DNA of 64,000 nucleotides from assembly GCA_043228905.1 (NCBI GenBank), contig JBHGNT010000018.1, forward strand, positions 9,858,001 through 9,922,000. Reading direction: 5' to 3'. Of the stretch, positions 519 to 42,211 are shown piece after piece. Source of the DNA: Azolla caroliniana (taxonomy: Eukaryota > Plantae > Polypodiophyta). Position 1 is the first letter of the stretch. Each line of letters starts with the position of its first letter. The notes under the pieces are model-generated. The model had not been told where the DNA came from. It did no database searches and saw only the letters and a program-made list of their open reading frames with translations. Both the position numbers and the translations under genes were made by a program.

Positions 519-3500
519 TCACTTCGGCATGGGATGTCTCTCCAATCCGACTCTCTTCCGGCACGCTCCCAGCTTGTCGGGTGTGAGCACTTTGGTCAGC
601 ATATCTGACCCGTTCTCTTCCGTGTGGATCTTCGTCAGCACGAACTCCTGGTCTTCTATCCTTTCCCGGATCCAGTGATATCTTCGCTGGATGTGCTTCG
701 TCCGGGAGTGATAGGCCGCGTTCTTCGCAAGGTGGATGGCACTCTGACTGTCGCAGTAGAGTCGGTACTCCTCTTGCCGGATACCGAGCTCTCTAATGAA
801 GTCCTTCATCCATATTATTTCCTTGCCGGCTTCAACAGCCGCCATGTACTCCGCCTCCGTGGTTGACAACGCAACCGTCTTCTGCAGCCTCGACTGCCAC
901 GAAACAGCTCCCCCTGCATACGTCATCACATACCCTGATGTGGACCGGCTGGTATCTGCATCAGCCGACATATCAGAATCAGTAAAGCCGTCGAGTTCGG
1001 GCTTACCGGAGCCGAATCGGAGGCACACGTTTGCCGTGCCCTTCAGGTATCGGAGTATCCACTTGACCGCGTTCCAGTGCTCTTTGCCGGGATTGCTCAT
1101 GTATCGGCTCACCACTCCAACTGCATATCCTATGTCCGGTCTTGTACACACCATTGCGTACATCAAGCTTCCAACGGCAGAGGCATATGGTACTTTCATC
1201 ATGTCCTCCTTCTCAGCCTTTGTCTTGGGGCTTTGCTTGCTGGACAACTTGCAGTTTGCCGGGAGGGTTGACCCGACCGGTCTTGCTTCCGACATGTTGA
1301 ACCGGTGAAGCACCTTTGTCACGTACTTCTCCTGTGACAGCCACAACTGCTTCTTCTTCCGGTCCCGGATGATGTGCATCCCTAGTATTTGCCTCGCCGG
1401 ACCCAGGTCCTTCATTGAGAAGGTTTGGTGAAGCGCTTTCTTCAGCGTCCGTATCTTGACCTGGTCCCGTCCGACGATCAACATGTCGTCCACGTATAGG
1501 AGGAGTATTAGAGAGTCTCCTCCTTCGAACTTCTTCACAAACACGCAGTGATCGGACTGCGTTTTGTGGTACCCTTCGTCGGTCATGAAGGAGTCAAACT
1601 TCCGGTACCATTGTCGGGGAGCCTGCTTCAGTCCGTAAAGGCTCTTCTTCAACCGGCATACCAGGTGCTCCTTCCCTTCTTTCTCGAATCCTTCCGGTTG
1701 CTGCATGTAGATCTCTTCTTCGAGGTCACCGTGAAGGAATGCCGTCTTCACGTCCATCTGTTCTACCTCGAGATCCATGCTTGCCGCTATGCTCAGCACC
1801 GTCCGGATGGAGGTCATCTTCACTACCGGGGCAAATATCTCGTCGAAATCGACGCCCTTCTTCTGCTGGAACCCCTTCACCACGATCCTGGCTTTGTATC
1901 TCGGGGGTTTTCCGGCATCTCCCGGTTTCAGCTTGAACACCCACTTGTTCCGAAGTGCCCGCTTTCCTTTCGGCAACTCCACAAGTTCATATGTGTGGTT
2001 CTCATGCAGGGAATCCATCTCCTCCTGCATGGCACTTAACCACCTGCGGCTATGAGTGTCAAGCTTTGCTTCTTCAAAGCTCTCCGGCTCCCCCTCGTCG
2101 GTTAGCAGCACGTGCTCTGGTTCCGGAAATCTCCGGGGGGCCCTTCTCTCTCTTAGAGGATATCTCCGTTCCGGAGCTTCGGTAACCGGCTCCTCCGTTT
2201 CCTCTTCATCCGAATCCATTTCGGGATCGGGGCTGGTTCCGGTATCAGTTTCATCTTCCTCGGCCGGTTCTGTTTCTTCACCGTCTTCGGCCGGATCCTC
2301 GAGTGCTAACCGGTCCCTTGCCGGTCGGGACTGCTCCTCGTAGAGTTGATCCTCACCGGTCGACTTGGAGCTCTTCATCTTCTTCTCCGACTCCCAGTCG
2401 GCGAGTGTCTTGTCCTCCATGAAGATGATATCTCGACTCCTGAATATCTTCTTGTCGACCGGGTCCCATACTCGGTAGCCGAACTCGTCGTCGCCGTAAC
2501 CGAGAAATATGCATGGCCGGGTCTTTGGATCTAACTTTCCTCTCCGGTCCTTTGCCACATGCACGTATGCGAGACACCCGAACACCTTCAGATGCCGGTA
2601 GGACACTTCCTTACCGGTCCACACTTTCTGCGGCGTGTCTCCGTCCAAAGGCACTGAGGGTGATCTATTTATCACATACGTCGCCGTCGACATTGCCTCA
2701 GCCCAAAATCCCTTGGGTAATTTCGCATGCGCCAGCATACTCCGGACCCTCTCCATTATGGTCCGGTTCATCCTCTCGGCCAGCCCGTTCAGTTCCGGCG
2801 TCTTCGGCACGGTAAACTCAAGCCGGATTCCCTTCGAGCGACAGTACTCCGTGAACTGCCCCCGGTATTCCCCTCCGTTATCCGCTCGTATCGCTTTCAG
2901 CTTCTTGCCGGATTCCCTTTCCACTCTCGCGTGGAGTTCTTTGAAGACGGACAATACTTGGTCCTTTGTCTTCAACGGTGCCGTCCACAACTTCCGGTTG
3001 TGGTCATCTATGAAAGTTACGAAGTATTGGGCTCCGCCATGTGACTTCGTTTCTACCTGACACACATCAGTGTGCACCAACTCCAATGGTACACTACGTC
3101 TCGTCGGTGGCCTTGAGTGGAAGGAGGTCCGGTTTTGCTTACCGGCCAGGCAGTCGGTGCACTTCTCCAGGTGCACATGCTTCACTGGAATAAGGTTGTC
3201 TTCTGCAAGCCTCTTCATCCCCTTCTCACTCATGTGACACAGTCTCTTGTGCCACAGCTCACCGGCAGTATCGGCTGCCACGTTCAGCTCCTCCGGACAT
3301 AGCCGGGAATTCATCAGGTACAGTGTGTTGACCTTCCGGGCCCGAGCCACTATCAGGTTCCCCTTGCTGAACTTCATGACACCGTTCCGGATGCTACCCG
3401 TGTAGCCTTCGTCATCTAGCCTCCCGGCCGAAATCAGGTTCAATCGAACCTCCGGAACGTGTCGAACATTCTTCAGCAGCATCTTGCATCCGGTTGATGT

Positions 3501-4592
3501 CATCAGCCACACGTCTCCTATGCCGGCAATCCGGCATGTACCTTCATTTCCCATCCGGACACAGCCGTGCTCACCGGCTGTGTAGGATGAGAAGTATTTC
3601 TTCTCCGGGGTCAGGTGGAACGACGCTCCGGAATCGACCACCCAGGTCATCTCTTCACCGGCACGGTTCAGCTCCCTCTCTTCGGTAATGAGCATTATCT
3701 CTTCTTCACTTGCCGCGAGTGCCGTCGTTCCTTTCCGGTCCTGCCCTCGCCGATCCGGACCTCTCCGGTCCGTGGCTCCCCGGTATGCACCGTTTCTCTC
3801 CGGTGACTTCTTCGAATCGGTGTCGTCGGCTCCGTTGTCCTTTCGGTAATGCCGACAATTCTTCCGAAAGTGCCCCGGCTTCCCACAGTGGAAGCATGTG
3901 GGCCTTCCTCTTGACTGCGACCGGGTCCCCGACTTCTCCCGTCTTTGCGGACTCCGGTTCCATTGTCTTCCCCGATCCGATTCGGTAAGCAGCATCTTCG
4001 GATCGGAAACCGGTTCTTTATCTCTCCGACGCGCTTCTTCGTTCAAAATGCTTGTCTTTACCGTTTGTAGAGACAAGTTATCTTCGGTGCAGGAGGTGCT
4101 GAGAGTCACCACCAAGTTCTCCCAGCTTTCCGGCAATGTACACATCAGAATGATGGCTTGCATTGCATCCTCCAACGGGAACTTGATCGCCGCAAGCTGG
4201 TTCACGAAACCCATGAACGTGCTTACGTGTTCCACCATACTCTCGCCGTCCCGGTACTTGAGGTTCACTATCTTTCTCATCAGGGAGGTCCGGTTCAACG
4301 CATTCTTCCTCTCGTAGAGGCCCGACAGCTTCCGCCACATCTCATATGCGTTGGTGTCGTTCGCCACGTGTTGTAGAACGCTCACGTCGACGTATTGCCG
4401 AATGGTTGCAACGGCTTTCCGGTTCAGAAGCCTCCATTCCGTCTCAAGTACCCCCTTGGGTATTTCCGACCTGTCGATCGGTTCATACAGGTACCGAACA
4501 ATGAGCAGATCCTCCATCTTTATCTTCCAGTCGGCGTAGTTCTGCGCATTCAGCACCATCATCCCCGGCTGCCCGCTGCTGCCGCCTTCCAT
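519..4592 (-). CDS. Copia Gag-Pol polyprotein (Gag, CCHC knuckle, protease, GAG-pre-integrase, integrase, RT, RNase H)
   Basis: CFHCGKPGHFRKNC, WVVDSGASFH, LWHKRLCHMS, DNGGEY, LLYVDDML, STTEAEY, YCDSQSAI. The ATG of MEGGSS at 4592 lies just after the PBS; the ORF-track start at 4646 is inside the LTR. Confidence 0.95.
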   Translation of the reverse strand: MEGGSSGQPGMMVLNAQNYADWKIKMEDLLIVRYLYEPIDRSEIPKGVLETEWRLLNRKAVATIRQYVDVSVLQHVANDTNAYEMWRKLSGLYERKNALNRTSLMRKIVNLKYRDGESMVEHVSTFMGFVNQLAAIKFPLEDAMQAIILMCTLPESWENLVVTLSTSCTEDNLSLQTVKTSILNEEARRRDKEPVSDPKMLLTESDRGRQWNRSPQRREKSGTRSQSRGRPTCFHCGKPGHFRKNCRHYRKDNGADDTDSKKSPERNGAYRGATDRRGPDRRGQDRKGTTALAASEEEIMLITEERELNRAGEEMTWVVDSGASFHLTPEKKYFSSYTAGEHGCVRMGNEGTCRIAGIGDVWLMTSTGCKMLLKNVRHVPEVRLNLISAGRLDDEGYTGSIRNGVMKFSKGNLIVARARKVNTLYLMNSRLCPEELNVAADTAGELWHKRLCHMSEKGMKRLAEDNLIPVKHVHLEKCTDCLAGKQNRTSFHSRPPTRRSVPLELVHTDVCQVETKSHGGAQYFVTFIDDHNRKLWTAPLKTKDQVLSVFKELHARVERESGKKLKAIRADNGGEYRGQFTEYCRSKGIRLEFTVPKTPELNGLAERMNRTIMERVRSMLAHAKLPKGFWAEAMSTATYVINRSPSVPLDGDTPQKVWTGKEVSYRHLKVFGCLAYVHVAKDRRGKLDPKTRPCIFLGYGDDEFGYRVWDPVDKKIFRSRDIIFMEDKTLADWESEKKMKSSKSTGEDQLYEEQSRPARDRLALEDPAEDGEETEPAEEDETDTGTSPDPEMDSDEEETEEPVTEAPERRYPLRERRAPRRFPEPEHVLLTDEGEPESFEEAKLDTHSRRWLSAMQEEMDSLHENHTYELVELPKGKRALRNKWVFKLKPGDAGKPPRYKARIVVKGFQQKKGVDFDEIFAPVVKMTSIRTVLSIAASMDLEVEQMDVKTAFLHGDLEEEIYMQQPEGFEKEGKEHLVCRLKKSLYGLKQAPRQWYRKFDSFMTDEGYHKTQSDHCVFVKKFEGGDSLILLLYVDDMLIVGRDQVKIRTLKKALHQTFSMKDLGPARQILGMHIIRDRKKKQLWLSQEKYVTKVLHRFNMSEARPVGSTLPANCKLSSKQSPKTKAEKEDMMKVPYASAVGSLMYAMVCTRPDIGYAVGVVSRYMSNPGKEHWNAVKWILRYLKGTANVCLRFGSGKPELDGFTDSDMSADADTSRSTSGYVMTYAGGAVSWQSRLQKTVALSTTEAEYMAAVEAGKEIIWMKDFIRELGIRQEEYRLYCDSQSAIHLAKNAAYHSRTKHIQRRYHWIRERIEDQEFVLTKIHTEENGSDMLTKVLTPDKLGACRKRVGLERHPMPK

Positions 4593-4623
4593 TTTCTGTG
4601 TTACAGTCCCTCTGATACCACTT

Positions 4624-4891
4624 TGTTGAACACAGTGCTCGGCCACAACCGAGGAATAGGATCAACTCACAGAAAACGGGAAATACAAAGTGCACGAGGA
4701 CAATAGAGAGAGAAAGGTACACTGGATATTTTACGTGGAAAACCCTAAATGGGAAAAAACCACGGGAGTCCTCAATCTCCAACTATCACTATGAACAGGG
4801 ATGTACACTGGTGAAGCTACAAGGCAACAACCTTGAGCTCACTGTCTTCGCCACAGGCGGCGGTAATACACAGAGAGACAACGACCTCTTC

Positions 4892-18169: not shown

Positions 18170-21100
18170 TAATTACTCTTCTTCAACCTCGATGTTCAAG
18201 GATACATCATCTAGATCTTCGATCTCAAGATTTGGGGCTTCTCTTCTCTTAAAGATCTTGATCCTCTTCCCTGCTATCAGCAAAGCAAGTCGAGTTCCAT
18301 CCAACTCCGCTAAAAAATAGGTTGCATTGCTTTCTACTTTCTTGACCATATACGGGCCAAACCATCGTTTTGCGAACTTTCAAGCAATGCTATATTGATT
18401 ATCGAGACTACTATCATAGAAAAGAACCCAATCTCCTTCAATTTTTCTTTGTCGAAGACGATGCTTTCTATCAAAATTCTCCTTGTTCTTCAATCGAGCT
18501 TGGCGCAACCGTTCTATTGCCAACTCGACATCTTCGGGCCTTCGTTCTAATTGTTGAATCCTCGTGGCTAGGAAGTCTTCTCGACTCATTTCCTCTTGCC
18601 ATGGCAAAGACGTCCACAAACCAACACTTTGCTCAATAGGCATTATTGGTTTTTGTCCTAATATGAGTTCGGCGGGCATATATCCCGTAGTCGTGCTATG
18701 TGTAGTTCTATCTGCCCATAATGCATAAGGTAGTAATCGTGGCCAATTTCCCATCTTGCCGTCGCAAGCCTTTGCTAGAGCTTTTACAATTGGACTATGT
18801 CCTCGTTCCACCTTCCCATTTGTGTTCGGGTTGTATGCCATGGTGAGCGATAATTTGACGCCTATTCTTGAAAAGAACTCTTTAGCTTCATTTGCATCTA
18901 ATTCTCCTCTATTGGCCACTATTTTGCCGACACATCCGTATTGACAAATAACATCTTCAAGGAGAAACCTACAAACCGCCGAAGTTGTTTTATTCCTTAG
19001 CGCCCGTCCTTCTACTTGGTTGGTGAGATCCTGTCTTGCTAGCACGAGATATTTCAATTGCCCCAATCCCATTGGCATAACCACTATGTCTACCAACCAC
19101 TTATAATGCATTGATAATGGATATGTCGGATGAAGTTCATCCCTATGTTGAATATTCGAGTATAATTGGCATTGCTCACATGTTTCAACATAGCTTGCTA
19201 CATCTTTGTAAACACCCGGCCACCAATACTTCTCCTTGAGCTTTGCAAATGTTGCCCATATACCACGATGACCTGCCCACACACTATCATGAAATTCAAC
19301 AATTAGTGTTTGTTGATCCTATTTCTTGCACACCACTCGAAGTGGAGATCCATTCTTTTTCTTCGGAAACTTCTATAGATGTCCTTCTTTGAGGAAGAAC
19401 TTGTAGGCCTTCTTCCTAATTCGGTAGAAGTCTTCCTTTGACCATGATTCATCTTTTGTAAGAGAGCTTAAGTATTTGCCAATTTCGATGAATTCACCCT
19501 CATAATCTTCTACTTTGAACACTGCTAGCACCCGAGCACAAGAAACCGTAAAGAAGTTTAGGCCAACATCCTCTTTGTCGGAGTGCAAATCTTCTTCATC
19601 CTCATACCTCGCCCTTGACAACATATCGGCCACCACATTATGCTTTCCATTTATATGTCGAATCTCGGGGTTGAGGGACTTGATATAGGCAATCCATCGC
19701 AGCATAGCAATATCCGGTGTAGCACAACCGGATATCATTCCGAGAATAGGTAGACAGTCGGTTTCGATTATGACCTCTGTTCCTATAAGGTAGTCATGGT
19801 CGGTTTTAACCGCAGATACTATTCCCCATAGCTCTCTCTTTACTTGAGCATACTTCATTTGTCTTTCGGTTAACACCTTCGCACCAAATCGGATTGCATA
19901 CCGATTCTTTTCTTTGTCTTCTTGGTTTATCACCCATCTAATTCTGGTTGGTCTCGTATCCACCGTCACATATATCGGGGTACCATCGGTGTAGTCGGCT
20001 TTGCGCAGTGCTGGAGCTTCCAATAATAGTTTCTTTAGCTTTTGAATTGCGTAGGTATGCTCATCTTCCCATTCGAACTTCTTCCTTTTCTTTAATAGTC
20101 CATACAATGGTTCAGCGACATGGGCATAATGTGGAATCCATATGTGATAGAATGCACATGCTCCCAAGAATCTACGCACCTCCGTTTGAGACACACATTC
20201 TTCTTTCATCTCTTGAATAGCGTTCACCTTGGATGGAGATGGTTTCCGGCCATAAGACCCACATAAGTGTCCTACTACCAATATTTCTAGTTGACCGAAT
20301 GTAGACTTCTCTCCCGAAAGCGTGAGATTCGCATCCTCAAGCTTTTGCAACACCTTCTCGCTATCCTTTATATGATCGATGACGAATCTTCGACAACCAT
20401 CTTCATCTTTCGATTCATTTTTCGATTCATCTTTCGATTCATCTTTCTCTTCCATCAAGCATCCTTTGATTGGAATGTCATCTAAGAAGGGCATTGTGAT
20501 ATCGGGGATGCAATCCCTCAACACTTTATTCATGGCATTCACCATGTGGGCTACGGAATTTGTTGCACCTTGGGGTAAGGTGCACATCCTTACCAACCTG
20601 ATCGACGTCCTCATTGTCGTTATGTCTCTACTATCGACGGCCAATTGAAATTGACCATAGCCCGAGTAGAGATCTCCAATGGAATAGATCGATCTTCCCG
20701 CGAAGGCTTTGGCAAATTCATCCACGCTTGGACCAATTCCGGCATTTCGGATCATCACCTTGTTGACGGGTTGGAGATCTTGTATAAAGCGTAAGGACCC
20801 ATTCTTCTTCGGCACTGTAAACCATCTATTAGAGTAGGGAGCATTGGATGGCTCAAGAATTCCCATCCTAACCTTCTCCTTTAGAAGCTCAATCAACTTT
20901 GGAATGTGAGCTCTTGGAACCGGTATCAGCTTGAGGTTCCAAGGTACATGTGGCACCGTAAAAATCACCATCGGTTCTATCATCTTCGGGTCAGCACATC
21001 CGATCTCTTGTGGAGAGAAGGCAAAGGCTTTCCCATGTCTCTCAAGCATTCCGCGGAACATTCTCTCCTCTTCGGGGAGAAGGAAAGCTTCCCTTCCAAC

Positions 21101-23825: not shown

Positions 23826-25458
23826 TGTTGCAATTGATATCCTTCCTACCGCCTCTTTCACGTCGGGTTCACCACTTAATTATGTCATGAAAATCCGTCA
23901 CTATGTGCGGATCGTGAGGCGGAACCGCCGGGGTTCTGGACTAGAAGGATTTAGTGCAACACGTACAACACAAGCAAGTTTTAAGCATAAGACAAGTGGG
24001 AGAGACAAATCATTTGTTTATTGCAAAAGAAAATCGATTCTTTATAATTTCAGAATTGTGTTGCAATGGGTTGGGTATGGAAATGAGAGATTAGTTTTTC
24101 AAAGAAAGGAGCCAACAACCATGCAAGGAGTGGTCCGATATGAATACGAGAGATAATTTCTTACAAGAAAGCTCAAGTAAACAAACCTATCAGTTTGATA
24201 TCAATATGTGAGATCATTCTCTTCTCGAATCCGAGAGGGAAGAAGAAAGAAGGGGGGAAAAAATGGGACATATATCGAGCGCCCCGTTGATCCTCCTCCC
24301 CAACTTTAGTTTGCATGCCCACTTCTAGTCGGAAGGCCTCTATTTTTAGTTGCATGGCCTTTGCTTTTAGTCACATGCTTCCATTTTTAGATGCATGCCT
24401 TTTTACTTTTAGTTGCATGGCCTTGGCTTTTGGTTGCATGCGATTGTCCGTATAATTCGGCCAAATGACACAATCATCCATAAAGTTTAGCCCGTATGCA
24501 ATCCGTACGTGCATCGCAACCAAACTGTAGACACGTCAGCGTGCAAATGTCTCGACCACGTAGTAGTGTACGCATCCACGCATGCGCACGTCCCGACCGC
24601 GCTGTAGTGTACGCATCCACGTGCGCGTGCGTACAACCCGCACCGTATATGCATTCGCGCACAAAAGTCTCGTTCGCACCGTTAGAGTACGCATCCACGC
24701 ATGCGCGCGTGTCCATACACGCGTCCGCGCCGCACATACACGTCCGTCCGAAACGTCCACGCATGCGTGCGTGCACACACATGCATCCGCATATACGCAT
24801 CCGTCCGAAATTTGCACACGCACGTACATCCAAAGACGTTCATGTGTGCGTACTTCCGAAAACGTCCACGCGGCCACGTAGACGCGCGTACGCCCGAAGC
24901 GTGCAATGCGTCCGCGCCGCACATACACGTCCGTCCGAAACGTCCATACACGCGTCCGCGCCGCACATACACGTCCGTCCAAAACGTCCACACATGCGTG
25001 CGTGCACACACACGCATCCGCATATACGCATCCGTCCGAAATTTGCACACGCACGTACATACGAAGACGTCCATGTGTGCGTACTTCCGAAAACGTCCAC
25101 GCGGCCATGTAGACGCGCGTACGCCCGAAGCGTGCACACCACATAGTGTAGCCCAAGTCACCTTGAACATCCTATGCTCCACACATTGATAGAATGAATA
25201 TGTTTTGGTTTCCCTTATATATTCTGGGTTCCAATGTTGTCCTATCTATGTGGGATATCTCACAATTTTGTCTTTTCTTTTCTTTTCTTCAAACTTCACA
25301 CTCACATAACTTGATACTTGTTTATCTGTTTTATGCGTAGTAAAATACGCTATGAAGCTCTTTAACACATCTATCTTTCCATATCCATATATTAAGCTAA
25401 TCGTAAATAATTATTTTACTAGTTTGCATATCGTGTGTGGAAACCCACACGACACTGG

Positions 25459-28010
25459 TAAGCATCTGTTGCCTATGATCAACCACTTCCTTGCAGTCCT
25501 CTACCCACCGCCTTTGGTTTCCCCTCATCGCACCCTGATCTCTCCAGCACCACCACGGAAACAACGTGGGCAGATTTTGGAGATAACTCAGGAAGAATGG
25601 GAAGACTCCTCGTCTTCTCCACCTCCCTCAAGCGTTCGGAACCCCGTTTCCGCCTCGACCTCACCCCCACCAAAAACACAAAGAAAACGGGTGGTGACAG
25701 CAACCCATGTCGAATGGGATGAGGCCGAGGAGGCCATCCCCGAGGATGTCACCATATGCCAGAGGCCAGCAAGGACATCAATGACCTCTCCACAACCAAG
25801 CCCACAGCCCACCAGCCAGGAGGCCTTGGCCATCCGGCAACAGAAGAGGAAACATGCCGAGGAGCCAACACCACCGGCCCCAGACGCGCAGGACCAACCG
25901 CCAGAAAGACGTCGTATCATTCGAGAGGCAAACATAGAAACCGAAGGCGACCAACGGCAGAAATCAAAAGAGGCTAGCGCCCCCTCCACGGACATAGTAC
26001 CAGTGGAGTCATGGCTCCAAGTCGGCACGATTGAGGATGGCCAAACCATGCAGATATCAGAGGAGGAAGTCCTCGGGTACAAAGATCTCCCCGCGGAGGC
26101 ATACGAGTTCAGTGCCCTACTTCGACCGGGCACAACTTACGAGTTAATGGATTTCCTCGCTCGCGCCCAAGTAGCACGCCGAAACAAAGATGATCCAAAG
26201 CGCGCTAATGGGTGAAATCGAACCTCACGAGGATCGAGCCTTACAAAAGATAGGACAGAAGAAGCAAGTACAGAATGCTTCGCTTCTCATGGAACTACCG
26301 GATGTGAAGATGGCCTTAGTCGAGGCATATCGCAATTTACACCACACTACTCGGGCAACCAAGGACATGGCCCGACGTATAAAAAGGGTGCATCAACAAG
26401 CCAAACGGGCTACCGACCTATGGCAAGCCGCTGAGAAGAAACTAGTGACACTCACACAACAACGGCCGCCCTTAATCCTCCCTGCGCCGAGTGAAGCTGT
26501 CTCACCAGCCACTCTTTCGAACCCGAACCCAAGTGCTGAAGGTACCATAGCATACAAAGATGACACCTCCCACCCCACGGTAGCCACGACCGAGGCCAGC
26601 ACAATGACAGACTCGGTACAGAAAAGTGAGCCATCGTCACGGGCAGATATCAGCCTGCACCCCCAAACCAGCCAAGCCTCGATGCAAACGCTACCACCTC
26701 TGGAAGTCATGGAACGAGCGACACAAACAGACAGGGAGTCCTCGGCCCAACTCTAGCAAGTGGCAACCTAGACAGGGCCTGCCCTTAGGGACTAACAGGA
26801 GGAGCTTCAGGCCCAGATTGCGCTAGCCGAAATGGCCGAACAGAATCACAACAACATTCTTGGCCAGCAACGAGAACAAGCCGCGAGCCGCGAAGTGAAC
26901 CTCAAGCGATTGCTTGCTGAAAGGTCGGCCGCGCTTGAAGCATGAGAACGAGAGGTGATGACCTTCCAAGTCTCGATCACTGAGGCTAAGGAATAGTTCA
27001 TGAAAGAAACCGAGTGGAATAGCCAACGGGAACAATATCTCTTCGCCGACAACCAGGAATTACGCCATCATCAACGAGCCTTCCAGGACATGGCCAACGA
27101 ACATATGAAGAAGTGGAGGATCTCGGAGGAGCAATGAGCGAAAATTTCCGATGCATATCACCAGTTGCAATCCGAGCACATCGCCGTCAAAGAACAACAC
27201 CGGGACGCCTAGTGACAGGAAAGGGACAAAATTGTAGCTCAGCTAACCAACCGTTATGAGCAGACCATCGTGCTCATCACGGAAAAAGCAAAAGATAATC
27301 AAGCTATGTTAGCAGTCTTCGCCTGCAAAAGCCAAGCAGAAGCCAAGGCCGCAAGGGAGGCACTGGAAGTTCACGGCGCGAGCATCGACATGGACGATAC
27401 CAAAATCAAGACCCTAATCCACAAGTATCGCCAACAATTCACCACGAAGATCAAAGAAATGCTTGACCATGTTTGGCAGGAGTGGTCAGCCCAAGCCGCG
27501 GACCTACACATACTACGCGCGGATGCCGAGAACCGATGGAAGGAGAGCCGAGGGTTTTACAAGATGGATGACACCAGCATCCAGACCCTCCGTGAGGACT
27601 TAACGGAAGAATATCATAGCTTGGCAACATCCCACAGCGCGGCCATCGAGCAACTCTTGGAGGAATTCAACGACGATCTAATGGTGTTTCGTTTAGAAGC
27701 CGAAGCATACGAGGAGGAATGACTCGCTACCGAGAGTCACAGGGCTCCCACAAACACCGAGCAAGGAACCGAGTCACTCCCCACGGCAACTAGACCGGAG
27801 GAACCTGCTCCTACCGACGTCCACATCCCACCGGAGCCACAGACTATAACCCCGACCCTGCCTGAATCGGTCCCAACAAAGGAGGGCACACACGCCAACA
27901 CCGCCATCCCCAACTCGGCAACACCACCTTCATCACCAAACCCACCGGCCGAGCAACCAGCCCAACCCGACGCCCCCGAGGATATCCTCCGCATATTGGA
28001 AGAAGAATAA
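25459..28010 (+). pseudogene. C-terminal part of the family F extra ORF (Pro/Ser-rich, then coiled-coil-like)
   Basis: ORF-track pieces 25352-26215, 26190-26756 and 27270-27722 are linked by one frameshift and point stops; ends RILEEE* just before the PPT. Confidence 0.75.
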
Positions 28011-28550
28011 AACCAACCTCTAAGCCCCGTAGGAAGGGGCAATTTTTGTAATTCGTGTGGTTTTGTTAAATCCATGGTGAACCGTGGGTCCGCTGGACAA
28101 AGTCCTGTCCCACAGATGTGCTAGGTGTTGTCCATAGGCCAAAAAAAGAAATTAGTTAAATGTAATACGCTGGAAGTAAGCTGATTAGGTAAGGGAGAGT
28201 TAGGTAAAACGCCGAGTTTCGAGCCTCACAGTCAGCCGACCGCTCGATGTTGTATGAAGGAAAAGAAGTATATAAACCGAGGTCTGCGTACCTCGACAGG
28301 GAGATATCAAGAGCCTAGGCGAGGTTGTTTCATAGATATAGGAGCTTTGTAAGGCTACCGGTTGTGGGCCGTGTTTTTGTAATCATCGTTAACTATTGCA
28401 ATAATACATATCTATTAGCTCTTGTTGTCTTCATCTGTGTGTCGTCGCTTCTAAGGTCTCAACTACGTATACGACCCGGGCTCTATTCTGGGTATACTCT
28501 TCGTGTTCCTCCCCTCACGACACCTTTGTGCACAAGTCTTCACGATTACA

Positions 28551-28731: not shown

Positions 28732-29100
28732 TGTCAAGACAGAGGGAGAGAGTGAGTGAGAGAGAGAGAGAGAGAAAGAAGATAGAGAGATAAAATAAAA
28801 GGAATTATTATATTGAAGAGTAAATGGATTACAAAGAGTAGGCAACAAAGTACTACAAAATGGTGTTGAACCAATTTAGGTTTGGGATGAGTGGTAGATC
28901 CCAATTTATAAGTAATAGAGAACACTCTAGAATATTCTAGGTTATCTTAGAATGTAGAGCAATCTAGAAGATCTCTAGAGTATTCTAGAAGTTTCTAGTG
29001 GTATAGAACACTCTAGAATATCCTAGGTCATTCTAGAATGTAGAGTAATATAGAATATTCCTATGATATTAAATTTCATATTCTGAAAACTATACATATA

Positions 29101-29172
29101 AGAATATTAATACAATGGTTAAGGATTTGACATGTGTTCACAAGGTCGTGGGTTCAAATCCTTTCGAGTCAT
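29101..29172 (+). promoter_or_regulatory. tRNA-like A/B-box cassette in the Tcn1-like LTR
   Basis: TAATACAATGGTTAAG at 29108; AAGGTCGTG GGTTCAAATCC with the B box at 29151. Confidence 0.65.
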
Positions 29173-37020: not shown

Positions 37021-37794
37021 TAACATAATTATTGTAGTATTTTCTCCTATTTCTTTTTACTTAGTTAATCGGGTACTCCACGCATATTTTACGTAGTTTA
37101 CAAACTGACACTCACCCCCTCCGAACCTGCACATCCTCTGGTATGTGCCAAAGTTTCTGATACTTGCTTGTTACTCTTCTTCATCCGAAGCACCCTCTGT
37201 CTGTTCCCCTAAGTTGATTATTAAATCCAACTGACTTTCCTCGCATTCTGCACCACCGTGATCTTTGTTTGATTGCTCCTCACTGACGGTCTTGTCTAAG
37301 GTCACGCAGGGTTTGTCGTCAGTTCGCTTCTTGAAAATCTTCACCTGTTTCCCCGCTATAGGCACCCATAGTATCGTTCCATCGAACTCACTTAGTTGGT
37401 AGATTCCGTTGTCGAAAACTTTCCGAACTTCGTATGGTCTGAACCACCCTTGAGCAAATTTCCGGATCGTTGTGTGTTGATGATCCAAACTACTGTCATA
37501 GACTCTCATCCAATCTCCTTCTTCAATCTTCTGTGGTCGTAGACGGTGTTTTGTGTCGAATTGCCTTTTGTTGCGGAACCACTCTTCTTGTTGTTGGCGT
37601 ATTGCTTCCGCTATGTCTTCCGGTCTTCTCTCTAGTTGTCGTATCCGAACCACTAGTAGTTCTTCCCGGCTCATCTCTCCCTCCCACGTCAGCACTGTCC
37701 ATGTTGTAATTGTGGTTTACGCAGACATTACCGATGCTTGTCCGGTCATAAGTTCCGTTGGCATATAACCAGTCACGGAACTATGCATTGTGCG

Positions 37795-40709
37795 TGTTAC
37801 CAATAAGAATATGCATGGAGGCATAAGGGTATGTGTAATGATGTGGTTGATGTGTATGTGTAAAGTAAATGAGTGTGTGAGGATGAGTATGTGCATGTGT
37901 ACAAGAATGTGTAACGGTCTTATTTATAACGGTCTCTTTTTGTAACGGATATATTATTTACCGTTACATTATGTATTATATAAACCCCTTATGGGGCATG
38001 TAATGAGATATAGTATTTTCCCCTCTCATTTGGTGTCATTTTCAATTTGTCGTTCTCTCTAGCTCTCTCACTATCGTAACCCCCTTGGGAGGGGGGTGAA
38101 GCCTTGAATGGCTTCAGCCCCCACCCTAACAGCACTTTTGGCACGCCCGAACGGCCGACCTCCCTTGAGAAGAGGTCGATCTCTCCCTCCCTCACTCTCC
38201 CTCTCCATCAGTAATCTTTCACCATCCCTCTCTATGTCTGTACTTGTGTGTGTTAGAGAGTGTGTTTTTTGTGCATACAATCACTATATGGTGAGTCATT
38301 TTTATTAGAGGTTTTTGGTGAAAGACTCTCTACATGATACGATGAGAGGTTTTTGATGAGATGAAAGACTTGAAGAAGACATGGAGATCATGGCTGAAGT
38401 TTCCATGGCCGAGAAGAAAAATTGATGCATAAGATTTTGGGAGAAAAGGATTCTGGAAGAATTAGTCCACAGTTGCGTCCCGGTGAAAAGGCTATCAGTC
38501 GAGCTCTCTTAGAAAAATGATTTGGAAGCACACAATATTCTTCTCCCTCTCTCTCTTGCCTTCCTCGTTCCCTTTTCCCTTGGTGGTGGTAGTGACTCGT
38601 GGGCATTTTACAGATTCTCAAAAACACCCACATGATGATGGAGAATCCACAGGAGGGGGATGATCATGATGATGACTTTGCATATGCTTGTGATGCCTTT
38701 ACCATCATCAGCCCCTCTCTACATTCATCATCCCCTCCTCATCTCACCTTCCTCTCTGCGTGTTTGTTTGTCTGTCCCAAATACTCTTCACAGCAATGGC
38801 AACGATCATCACACCCCACTCCATCGCTTTCACCCAAACTCTCTCCCCCTCCTATGGCAACTCTGAGCCTGAGTCTGAATCTAAATTAGAGCTATGATGG
38901 AATGAGTAGCAATGCGAACTCGGGATCACATGGCTCTAGATGTAATGTGCCTTATGCAAATGCACCTCCCTCTACAGTGAGCTCTTATGGAAACTCTACA
39001 TCTGGTTCAGAGAGTGGAGTGAGGCCCAGTTCACCACCACCACCATCTCCTCGCCCTGATGTTGCCAATACTGGATATGGTGGTTATTTGGATCCAAGTT
39101 ATGGTGGTGGCTCAATCCCAAGTGGGCTAAATCGAAGCTATTTTGTTCCTAGTTCAGGATTGTAGACGACGTTGAACAAACACCAATCAATGGACGACAA
39201 AGACAGGCGGCAGCCGACCAAACAACCAACAAACAGAGCCGGTGGCCGGACAGCCAACCGAGACACGGCGAGCCGGTGGAAGTAGTTAGACAGACGGTAG
39301 ACGTCCAACAAAGCTGACAAACGACAACAGATGGTCCGATAGAGCCCGAATGGACAGTCGGCCAACGACGAATGGCGACGGACGACGTCCGACAGCCGGC
39401 CTGCAAACAACAAGATGGACGACGACGGCCAAGTGACGGCCAGCCGGACAAAGACGGTCGAGTGAGTGACGGTCGTAGGACAAAGACGGTTTGACAACTG
39501 ACAGACGGCGATGGCCGGACAGAGCCGGCCAGACGGTTGGGCCGAGAATAGGCTAAGACAGAAGTGTCAGCCAAGAGCCTGCCCTTCGACATCCGATGGA
39601 GCGGACGAACGAAGATCGACGGTGGCAGAGCCCGCAAGATGGTACGGAAGCCCCAGAAGCCGTACATAGATGACCGAAGTTCGACAGGTGTCCGAAAAGA
39701 CATGACAGAACCCTCCTAACAATAGCGGCCGAGCCGACAGCCGATAGAGTCGGCCGGACAGATGGTGACGACACGGATGGAAATGGCCACAGATGACCAC
39801 GGAAAAAGAAAAAGATAGAACATACACACAAAGAAGGAAATCAGGAAGAAACGAAGAGGAGGAAGAAGAAGCAGAAGAAGAGATGAATGCACAAGAAGAA
39901 AAGAAAAAAGAGGAGAATAGAAGGAAACGAAGGAAGAGAAGAGGGGTATGAAGAGAAAATTTCAGAAGCATAAGGGTAGAAGAGAAAATTTCCAAAACTC
40001 AAGGGCATAAAATAAATAAATAAATGAGGGCAAAATTTTAAAGACCAAAGGGTATAAAATATAAAACTCACTTCACATGATGAAAGAAAGAATACACAAA
40101 TGCACAACACGATTTCACGACCCATGCCACAGTGAACTAGCCGATTGGTGTATGATCCAATCGTGACTTGTGCTGACCAAACGAGAAGGTTCGAGTCAAG
40201 CAAAGCTCTGATCGAAGTTATTAATCGTAGAGCAGTGATCCGGTCGAGAGATTTCCGACCATTGAGATGACTGATGGAGTTTTGGTTGAGAAGAGTTGTC
40301 ATAGCGAGTGGGTTCAGTGTGGAATGCACCGTCCCACAAGCGTGCCATGTGTTACCCATAAGAATATACAGGGAGGCATAAGGGTATGTGTAATGATGTG
40401 GTTGATGTGTATGTGTAAAGTAAATAAGTGTGTGAGGATGAGTATGTGTATGGACACATGCATAGTTATGTGCAAGTGTACAAGAATGTGTAACGGTCTT
40501 ATTTAGAACACTCTCTTTTTGTAACGGATATATTATTTACCGTTACAATATGTATTATATAAACCCCTTATGGGGCATGTAATGAGATATAGTATTTTCC
40601 CCTCTCATTTGGTGTCATTTTCAATTTGTCTTTCTCTCATGCTCTCTCACTATCGTAACCCCCTTGGGAGGGGGGTGAAGCCATTCTAGGCTTCACCACC
40701 CCAACAACA
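37795..40709 (+). mobile_element. Non-autonomous 2.9-kb LTR element (family I); LTRs 37795-38131 and 40350-40709
   Basis: Direct repeats TGTTAC...AACA; TSD GTGCG/ATGCG; removal restores host integrase PYALWAYRTMHSS; no gag/pol motifs; strand inferred from the TATA box. Confidence 0.88.
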
Positions 40710-42211
40710 ATGCGATATGCCCATAGTGCATACGGAAGCATTTGAGGCCAATTCTTCACCCTGCCATCTCATGCTTTTCCAAGTGCTTCAACGATTGGAC
40801 TATGTCCTCGTTCAATCTTCTCGTTGGCTTTTGGATTGTATGTCGTGGTCAGTGTTAACCGTTCTCCATGTTTGGCGAAGAATTCCCTAACTTTATCAAC
40901 GTTAAGTTCTCCCCGATCTGCAATCACTTGTGCTACACACCCATAACATGTCTTCCTCCGTAGCGCCCAACCTTCTACTTGGTTCGTCAGATCTTCCCGA
41001 GCTAATACCAAGTATTTCTTTTGTCCAATCCCAGTTGGCATGGCCACAATGTCGACCATCCATTTTAAGTTGATTGTCGGTGAGAATGTCAGATGTAATT
41101 CATCTCGATGTCGATCTCCGGAGTAGATTTGGCATTTCTCGTAGCTTCCTGTGAACTCCGCTACATCTTGATACATATTCTTCCACCAATATTTTTGCTT
41201 GATCTTCGTAAATTTTTCCCATGTTCCCCAGTGTCCAGCCCATTCGGATATTATTCTATTTCGTTGCTCTTTTGTTCTGACTACCCGCAGTGGTATGCCA
41301 TCCGGTCTTTTCGGCTCCCTCCAGATTTATCCATTGTTCAAGAAGAACTTCTGGACTTGCTGCTTCTTACTTCGGATCTTGGCTCTCTTTTCCATATTGT
41401 CTGATGATTCCTCGATATCTTGTAGCACCTTCCCGATCATCAGGCTTTCTCCCTCGTATTCGGCTTCTCGAACTTCTCGGATTACGTTCACCCGGCATAT
41501 GTGCTCTGAAGTAAAGTAGTTTTTGGAAACTTCTTCATTATCGGATTCAGCTATGTTGTCTCTGAACCGTGCCCTTGACAACATATCCACTACCGCGCGT
41601 TGTCTTTTCTGGAGATGTGCCGTACCCCCAGATTAAGTGACTTTACATATGCAATCCATCTTAGCATAGCCATATCCGGTATCGTACAACACCGCATCAT
41701 CCTGAGTATCAAAAGACAATCCGTTTCAATCACTACTTCGGCTCCGATCAAATAATCTCGATTTGATTTTATCGCCGACATGACTCCCCATAATTCTCTT
41801 TTAACTTATGCATATCCACATTACCTTTCGTTGAGAACTTTTGCTCCGAAAGAATCAGATATCGCGAACAATCTGAGTCAACTTGGTTGATGACCCATCT
41901 GATCCTGGTTGGACTTGTATCAATCGTTACTATGATCAGTCGGCCATAGTTCAGTTTCTTAAGTGCTTCTGCCCTCCGTAGTGTTTTCTTGAGCTTCTTC
42001 ATGGCTTTGGTATGTTCCGGCCTTCATTCGAACTTCTTACCCTTCTGCAACAAGTGATAGAGTGGATCCGCAACGTGTGCATAACGCGGAATCCATATGT
42101 GATAAAATGCACATGCACCAAGAAATCTACGGCCTTCGGATTGTGACTCGCATATTTCTTTCATAGCTTGAATCGCATCGATCGTGATTGATGACGGTCT
42201 TCGGCCGTAGG

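Follow-up and report, generated by a model that had tools for sequence, protein, structure and literature searches.

The 2.9-kb non-coding LTR retrotransposon at 37795-40709 belongs to a multi-family plant Ty3/gypsy lineage that carries a real, conserved and structured signal at the position of the polypurine tract (PPT): a tRNA-like site in tRNA sense, two nucleotides before the 3′ LTR. The inverted orientation of this site and the absence of an abutting PPT, first noticed in a single copy in the window (the whole 64,000-nt stretch of DNA that was analysed), are features of the whole lineage, coding relatives included. Judging from its position, register and conservation, the 3′ site likely replaces the PPT. 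It is also probable that the lineage replicates without a PPT, with plus-strand synthesis beginning at a CCA-ended tRNA terminus, which would most likely be a cis-encoded structured tRNA mimic and otherwise a second host tRNA.

Structure and insertion of the element

The LTRs of the element are direct repeats (Table 1) with 94.3% identity over 336 aligned columns (K2P 0.059), plus one 24-bp indel. The target-site duplications (TSDs), GTGCG and ATGCG, match at 4/5 positions. The element between them interrupts a single integrase reading frame, which matches that of a related copy at 18380-19318. Because this frame, part of an older gypsy element, runs on across both flanks, the element is a real insertion, in agreement with the initial annotation, which had taken it to have transposed. 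The same annotation had described it as non-coding and this is borne out: in the 2215-bp interior no Pfam match was obtained for the six internal or overlapping ORFs scanned, the longest ATG ORF has 184 codons, and a protein-level comparison with coding relatives gave no match. The element would borrow the proteins of a coding relative. The TATA-like box in the 5′ LTR is consistent with transcription of the plus strand.

The two tRNA primer-like sites reported earlier lie where they had been placed, TGGCACGCCCG at 38139-38149 and GTCCCACAAGCGTGCCA at 40331-40347, the latter followed by TG and by the right LTR from 40350. The first is the primer-binding site (PBS). Position 38132 reads A in 2005/2020, 2947/2956, 14815/14815 and 310/310 contig depth units of four runs; since A is found in nearly all the contig depth of 4/4 runs, the left LTR ends at 38134 and the PBS spacer measures 4 nt. 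The PBS is thus located just 3′ of the left LTR, as had been described, at a distance of 4 nt instead of the 7 nt given at first. Among 25 relaxed matches in relatives, one of them probably spurious, the PBS matches tRNA over 9-11 nt only, with spacers of 1 nt (n=8), 2 nt (n=13) or 4 nt (n=4). An 18-nt PBS at the 5′ end was dropped in view of these short matches and of the window's 14-nt string, which occurs in 0/160 loci. The PBS lies between the U5-side hairpin and a 7-bp hairpin at 38156-38178, and the flanking sequence is similar in related non-autonomous families.

Table 1. Features of the element and its surroundings, in window coordinates
Feature	Position	Strand	Remarks
Decayed motif copy before the LTR of a coding relative	28084..28125	+	Not picked by the scan pattern
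Left target-site duplication, GTGCG	37790..37794	+	
5′ LTR, 340 bp	37795..38134	+	TG start; final bases CAGCA here, A at 38132 in other copies
TATA-like box, TATATAAA	37977..37984	+	Sequence
U5-side hairpin near the LTR 3′ end	38091..38126	+	Second copy in the right LTR, 40666-40701
Spacer CTTT between LTR and PBS	38135..38138	+	1, 2 or 4 nt in relatives
PBS, 11 nt complementary to a tRNA-Arg-type 3′ end	38139..38149	+	Proxy tRNAs prokaryotic
Low-copy internal region	38220..39883	+	No Pfam match in six scanned ORFs, no match to coding relatives
High-copy non-coding 3′ region	39884..40307	+	Common to related non-autonomous elements
T-arm-like 5′ strand and loop start, GTGGGTTCA	40308..40316	+	tRNA positions 49-57
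Inserted hairpin	40317..40330	+	Covaries across families; 40330 is T in nearly all other copies
T-arm 3′ strand and CCA-ended tail, at the PPT position	40331..40347	+	tRNA sense; one base shorter than tRNA-Arg 59-76
Spacer of 2 nt between CCA and the TG of the LTR	40348..40349	+	
3′ LTR, 360 bp	40350..40709	+	TG...CA
Right target-site duplication, ATGCG	40710..40714	+	
Integrase region of an older degenerate gypsy element, the insertion target	40769..41326	-	Resumes at 37171-37789

The site at the PPT position

The right site reaches further upstream than the boundaries first assigned to it, to 40308, as a stem-loop. By comparison with prokaryotic proxies, it represents tRNA-Arg positions 49-58 and 59-76 in sense, split by an insert and with one base missing at 65/66, a deletion that breaks the match to the tRNA after 11 nt. 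The absence of a purine tract adjoining either LTR on either strand, noted from the start, is confirmed, the longest purine runs being 3 in the 20 nt before the right LTR and 5 next to the left LTR (minus strand). Elsewhere in the window, a copia element shows the usual purine tract ahead of its LTR. The 8-mer core occurs three times in the window against 1.6 expected; as this is near chance frequency, the window alone makes a weak case, and the case rests on position and on conservation elsewhere. A complete tRNA cloverleaf was sought at the site with ARAGORN (0 genes) and Rfam (no tRNA match), and an acceptor-5′-like string is present upstream in 3/119. A full minihelix was rejected, as was a longer stem via 40300-40305, confined to the window's own family group. 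Further 5′, about 240 non-coding bases (40063-40300) are kept among non-autonomous families and organism C (~75-80%), and this conserved block is a possible packaging signal.

Both sites had been likened to a tRNA-Arg 3′ end, a resemblance that stands when judged from prokaryotic proxies. The 14 prokaryotic loci that combine the T-arm with an identical acceptor end are without exception tRNA-Arg (13 UCG, 1 UCU), proxies from which the host's tRNA may differ. When the last G is dropped, many tRNA types match among the prokaryotic loci, and since the T-arm string is common to the Ile, Leu, Lys, Met, Asn and Arg tRNAs of these proxies, the assignment to Arg rests on the last bases. A search for host tRNA-Arg with ARAGORN on 120 loci returned two tRNA-Lys only. 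In L081, two tRNA-Lys genes or pseudogenes (1062-1137 and 2756-2828) are found 3′ of an LTR of the lineage.

Occurrence across the lineage

Parts of the window element are contained in the Logan contigs of 13 runs. The summed contig depth, which is not a copy number, runs to thousands at the LTRs, around the PBS and along 39884-40349; for the interior it is about 50-180 in run X1. The stretch 40296-40375 is covered by 164, 225, 66 and 72 contigs in four runs with four organism labels, and in the contigs of all four no variant of 8% or more was found at 40340-40349 or 40332-40336 and no indel. Contig depth peaks over the tail, and the loose ends, among the rows listed, show several different LTR starts behind it; the contigs are unstranded, and ordinary PBSs could contribute to the depth and invariance at the tail.

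A scan of metagenomes with a pattern made of the two stem strands, the tail and TGT gave at least 122 motifs in at least 120 loci. The matches listed comprise 90 different upstream strings, and their 77 LTR starts fall into 29 clusters. Since GGGTT, TCCCAC, the tail and the two 2-nt gaps were prescribed by the pattern, their invariance in the scanned loci is not evidence. Other features of the matches listed were left free by the pattern: GGGTT and TCCCAC are separated by 17-18 nt in 82/90 strings, though 10-30 nt were allowed, GT precedes GGGTT in 64/90, and CGA follows in 46/90. When LTR starts were used as bait, five of the six unselected LTR starts found in the loci carried the motif with its 2-nt spacer (L086 judged by eye), and the 3′ spacer is 2 nt in all unselected copies. 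The sixth is an inverted junction in L080, where the 5′ PBS directly adjoins an LTR in inverted orientation and a pair of 3′ ends lies head to head; this is one low-coverage contig that may be a chimera. The metagenome loci apparently stem from a single set of assemblies that contain plant DNA, so that the diversity concerns element families and not hosts. Viral contigs scanned for the motif yielded 13 matches, and RT-based locus searches of the viral and prokaryote collections gave no relative.

In several loci (L047, L049, L053, L059, L061, L064, L066, L078, L088, L095 and L111) the motif and LTR are followed by another PBS, which makes tandem units sharing an LTR. Some of these units differ in sequence, and a collapsed assembly could explain others. 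In L097, a leucine-rich-repeat gene lies about 2.7 kb 5′ of a 3′-end fragment of the lineage.

Fold and covariation of the 3′ site

The inner 4-bp stem of the inserted hairpin is perfect in 68 of the 90 distinct strings, compared with 1.8 in shuffles and 39 with swapped arms. Covariation was assessed in 31 rows: a single representative of every cluster whose upstream DNA was long enough (28 clusters), the coding relative L091 and two window copies. The score of 0.153 compares with 0.070 +/- 0.012 and is reached by 0/500 shuffles. Two-sided changes occur in 4/6 inner pairs and in none of the outer stem, where 13 of the 31 sequences break the first pair and 6 the second. In parallel, the RNAalifold consensus has six pairs and is weak, at only -2.4 kcal/mol.

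The imperfect pairs of the hairpin show a bias when read in RNA sense, with 14 G-T against 3 A-C (12 vs 3 by cluster, p = 0.035); in particular, at the first pair A-C is rare (1) compared with G-T (9) and A-T (7). The base at tRNA position 59 changes together with its cis partner, as C-G in 59, A-T in 18 and T-G in 4 of 90, and the A-T variant, present in three clusters, may be a single event. Folding energy reveals no strand preference (plus strand favoured in 40/89). For the copy in the window, the minus strand gives the better fold (z -2.45 vs -0.9); this copy is devoid of two pairing bases present in other copies (40303, 40330). The distance from stem to LTR is fixed at about 12 nt.

Coding relatives and placement of the lineage

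The near-complete coding relative L091 displays the order LTR end, CTTT, PBS, an ORF of 1886 aa, a sense ORF of 976 aa, motif, TG and LTR start, the last differing from that of the window element. The 1886-aa ORF holds GAG, zinc knuckle, protease, RT, RNase H and integrase (GAG-PROT-RT-RH-INT), and the RNase H catalytic motifs are present. Another coding relative lies in the window itself; its RT is 76% identical to that of L091, and it ends in the decayed motif at 28084-28125, a match that on its own does not exceed chance and draws its weight from where it lies. Among eight long sense ORFs that end within 400 nt of the motif, six have their stop 53-56 nt before the LTR, which leaves about 10 nt beside the motif. 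The extra sense ORF after pol, of 976-1109 aa, is found in L091 (242-3169, minus strand), L058, L087, L092, L104 and the window (25310-27722), with about 30-80% identity in blocks; its Pfam matches are all below cut-off, and an Atlas look-up gave no result.

The window element is a non-autonomous member of a plant Ty3/gypsy lineage without aRH that is distinct from Tat/Retand. Of the Ty3/gypsy features, TG...CA direct LTRs, a short TSD and a PBS after the 5′ LTR are present, and the abutting PPT, which is usual and not classifying, is absent. The nearest named RT-RH relatives are about 50% identical and come from Riccia, Marchantia and Adiantum, those of Pinus reach 42-47%, and further proteins 63-83%. 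A FastTree of 101 sequences was built after 8/120 had been dropped for short alignment and 12 arachnid rows as redundant, and its rows carry no lineage labels. In this tree, L091 and five further proteins (support 1.0) fall within a clade that includes the rows from liverworts and a fern (0.84) and is separate from that of the seed plants (0.99).

The initial annotation had likened both sites to the PBS of Tat/Retand elements. A tRNA-Arg PBS is a Tat feature, described for Ogre, TatIII and part of Retand in the available part of PMC6317226, and the window PBS matches proxy (prokaryotic) tRNA-Arg ends. According to the same partial text, Tat (TatI-III, Ogre, Retand) is defined by aRH (PMC6317226). 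The L091 polyprotein gave no RNase_H or RVT_3 match at E 0.01, and because it has no aRH, the lineage is not Tat/Retand; the sense orientation of the extra ORF and the grouping of the RT with those of seed-free plants argue in the same direction, and membership in Tat/Retand was given up. For Athila, the portion of PMC6317226 at hand describes a PBS for tRNA-Asp, Asn or Ala, no aRH, an extra ORF after pol and a 5-bp TSD. The layout is alike in the last three respects, but the PBS is not of the Asp, Asn or Ala type, and Athila was set aside; the RT of L091 lies outside the seed-plant clade of a tree in which the Athila clade is not marked, its rows having no lineage labels. Phygy and Selgy, for which a 4-bp TSD, a tRNA-Trp or Ala PBS and no extra ORF are given in that excerpt (PMC6317226), were compared by description and excluded by all three. 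The lineage is treated as unclassified within the non-chromoviruses and is likely one of seed-free plants.

Priming of the plus strand

That the element's own RNA at the 3′ site is a tRNA-like plus-strand primer has, from the sequences compared, about an even chance of being correct. Host tRNA-Arg would prime the minus strand at the PBS of 9-11 nt. Once the first strand has been transferred, RT would be held up at the base of the RNA stem, and its RNase H would then be located about 10-13 nt back, near the CCA. In the removal of tRNA primers by RNase H, a sequence-directed cut is made after CCA. Here the cut would leave a folded RNA that is held on the cDNA by its tail of 10-11 nt and that resembles, in shape and sequence, the tRNA primer at the PBS. 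RT would extend this primer into NN-TG-U3, and integrase would trim the two extra bases.

A tentative alternative is that a second host tRNA-Arg anneals to the minus-strand cDNA after RNase H has cleared the RNA and primes the plus strand, with the insert forming a three-way junction at tRNA 58/59. The site is identical to tRNA 49-58 and 59-76, and the GT and CGA that flank its strands extend this identity beyond the scan pattern. The tail, identical to tRNA, is invariant even at CG, for which a fixed outside partner is a simpler explanation than a primer made in cis. The outer stem without compensatory change, the weak consensus fold and the lack of a plus-strand energy preference also speak against the cis-RNA primer, as does the predicted pairing of proxy tRNA-Arg, which is stronger with the minus-sense site than with the PBS. 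In particular, 25-28 of the 30 terminal bases of the proxy could be paired with this site, for a predicted gain of about 17-30 kcal/mol over separate folds compared with about 12 at the PBS (RNA parameters, three sites). In tRNA, m1A58 stops pairing, and it is at this point that the insert is placed. A CCA-ended primer would moreover yield the 2-nt spacer without any cut. Variants at positions 67-68 are mostly G to A (84/90 purine-purine) and would be tolerable via G-T wobble, but they are also what methylation decay produces.

The self-made primer is favoured over a second tRNA because the wobble bias of the hairpin is in RNA sense and not in minus-DNA sense, because position 59 covaries with its cis partner, and because a one-base deletion inside the would-be complement is conserved. 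It is also favoured because the 3′ spacer and the stem-to-LTR distance are fixed, the latter at about the 13 bp that separate the two active sites of Ty3 RT in the accessible part of PMC5371799, while the PBS spacer varies. Cis pairing and the one-base deletion inside the tRNA-matching part thus fit a self-made RNA primer somewhat better than priming of both strands by tRNA, which had been suggested at the outset. The weights given to the element's own RNA and to a second tRNA are a matter of judgement.

It is improbable that the tail instead serves to circularise or dimerise the RNA through pairing with the PBS, or is excised to self-prime the minus strand, with plus-strand priming being secondary or performed by the same fragment. 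Pairing of the two sites for circularisation, as envisaged in the initial annotation, holds for the 8-bp core, which is complementary in 15/15 PBS/site pairs (10 bp in 8), but fails beyond it: position 9 is a C-A mismatch in 4/15 pairs, including L091 with its intact ORFs, and the window element is mismatched at both positions 9 and 10. The first L080 junction is what an exchange between two tRNA-like sites would give, though the contig may be chimeric, and pairing with the PBS leaves the hairpin and the missing PPT unexplained. More doubtful still is a stem-loop that acts as a packaging or regulatory signal, with the plus strand started from a displaced purine run or from unspecific RNA fragments. 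Among the motifs listed, purine runs of 10-14 nt are present 45-100 nt 5′ of the LTR in 15/118 but in none of the other 103; a distant start would not set a precise LTR start, and the CCA stands in fixed register with the LTR edge. Finally, a functionless relic or chance match, or an element read backwards with the site as its ordinary PBS, is very unlikely: the right site does have ordinary PBS geometry on the minus strand and the left LTR has a purine run of 14 nt less than about 100 nt away, but the gag-pol of L091 runs towards the site, its forward PBS precedes gag, and the site is conserved and covaries across 29 clusters with unrelated flanks.

Relation to known systems

To our knowledge, retroviruses and LTR retrotransposons are generally taken to prime their plus strand from a PPT. 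For the minus strand, by contrast, several modes of priming are known, which rely on a tRNA end, a half-tRNA or self-priming. The self-priming of Tf1 and Tcn1 concerns the minus strand, proceeds from the RNA 5′ end and involves no tRNA mimic, unlike the 3′ site described here. The likeness consists in the element's own RNA standing in for a primer (PMC6317226 and PMC5371799, both available in part). For the plant non-chromovirus Ty3/gypsy elements, the primers described in the accessible text of PMC6317226 concern the minus strand only. A description of a tRNA-sense site in place of the PPT was not found in the literature searched, which lay largely outside subscription journals.

Canonical Ty3 of S. 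cerevisiae shares the LTRs, the tRNA-type PBS and the RT-RH-INT order, as far as the partial texts of PMC5371799 and PMC6894440 go, and under the preferred model of a self-made primer its plus primer would be similar in again being an RNase H-made piece of element RNA. The Ty3 primer is a 12-nt purine tract, whereas here a GC-rich tail in tRNA sense stands behind a hairpin; likewise, the second segment of the Ty3 RNA that binds the tRNA does so as its complement and functions in priming the minus strand, whereas the present site is in tRNA sense (PMC5371799, PMC6894440, same excerpts). Drosophila Gypsy also has two tRNA-related sites, 5′ and 3′ tRNA-Lys, one near each RNA end, according to the available part of PMC1635307. 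In Gypsy, both are complementary to different parts of the tRNA on the RNA, whereas the 3′ site here is tRNA-sense, CCA included, and 2 nt from the LTR (PMC1635307). With Athila and Tat/Ogre/Retand (OTA), as covered by the partial text of PMC6317226, the lineage shares the 5-bp TSD, the extra ORF after pol and the 10-kb size, and, as judged from proxy tRNAs, with Ogre, TatIII and some Retand the tRNA-Arg PBS. Helenus/TRIMp3 and Cassandra are likewise non-autonomous LTR elements with tRNA- or 5S-derived sequence, which in the accessible description (PMC10886601) is located inside the LTR and functions as a Pol III promoter, and they have a PPT, unlike the window element. Membership in Helenus/TRIMp3, which requires a tRNA-like sequence inside the LTR, a length below 1 kb and a PPT, was accordingly rejected.

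If the model is true, either route, cis mimic or second tRNA, would be a new way of priming the plus strand of LTR retroelements, and the PPT rule would no longer hold, given a successful lineage of several families in which a tRNA-shaped signal occupies the PPT position. The lineage would offer a direct test of what determines a plus-strand primer for RT, purine sequence or shape, and the molecule expected at the 5′ end of plus strong-stop DNA differs between the two leading models. Annotation tools that orient elements by PBS and PPT could read such elements backwards or discard them.

Two further features of the window are of separate interest. A short stretch at 29100-29170, in which ARAGORN calls nothing, resembles a tRNA B-box region and is SINE-like. 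At 519-4661, on the minus strand, an unbroken copia polyprotein frame of 1380 codons is flanked by LTR copies that are 99.4% identical, which points to a young element.
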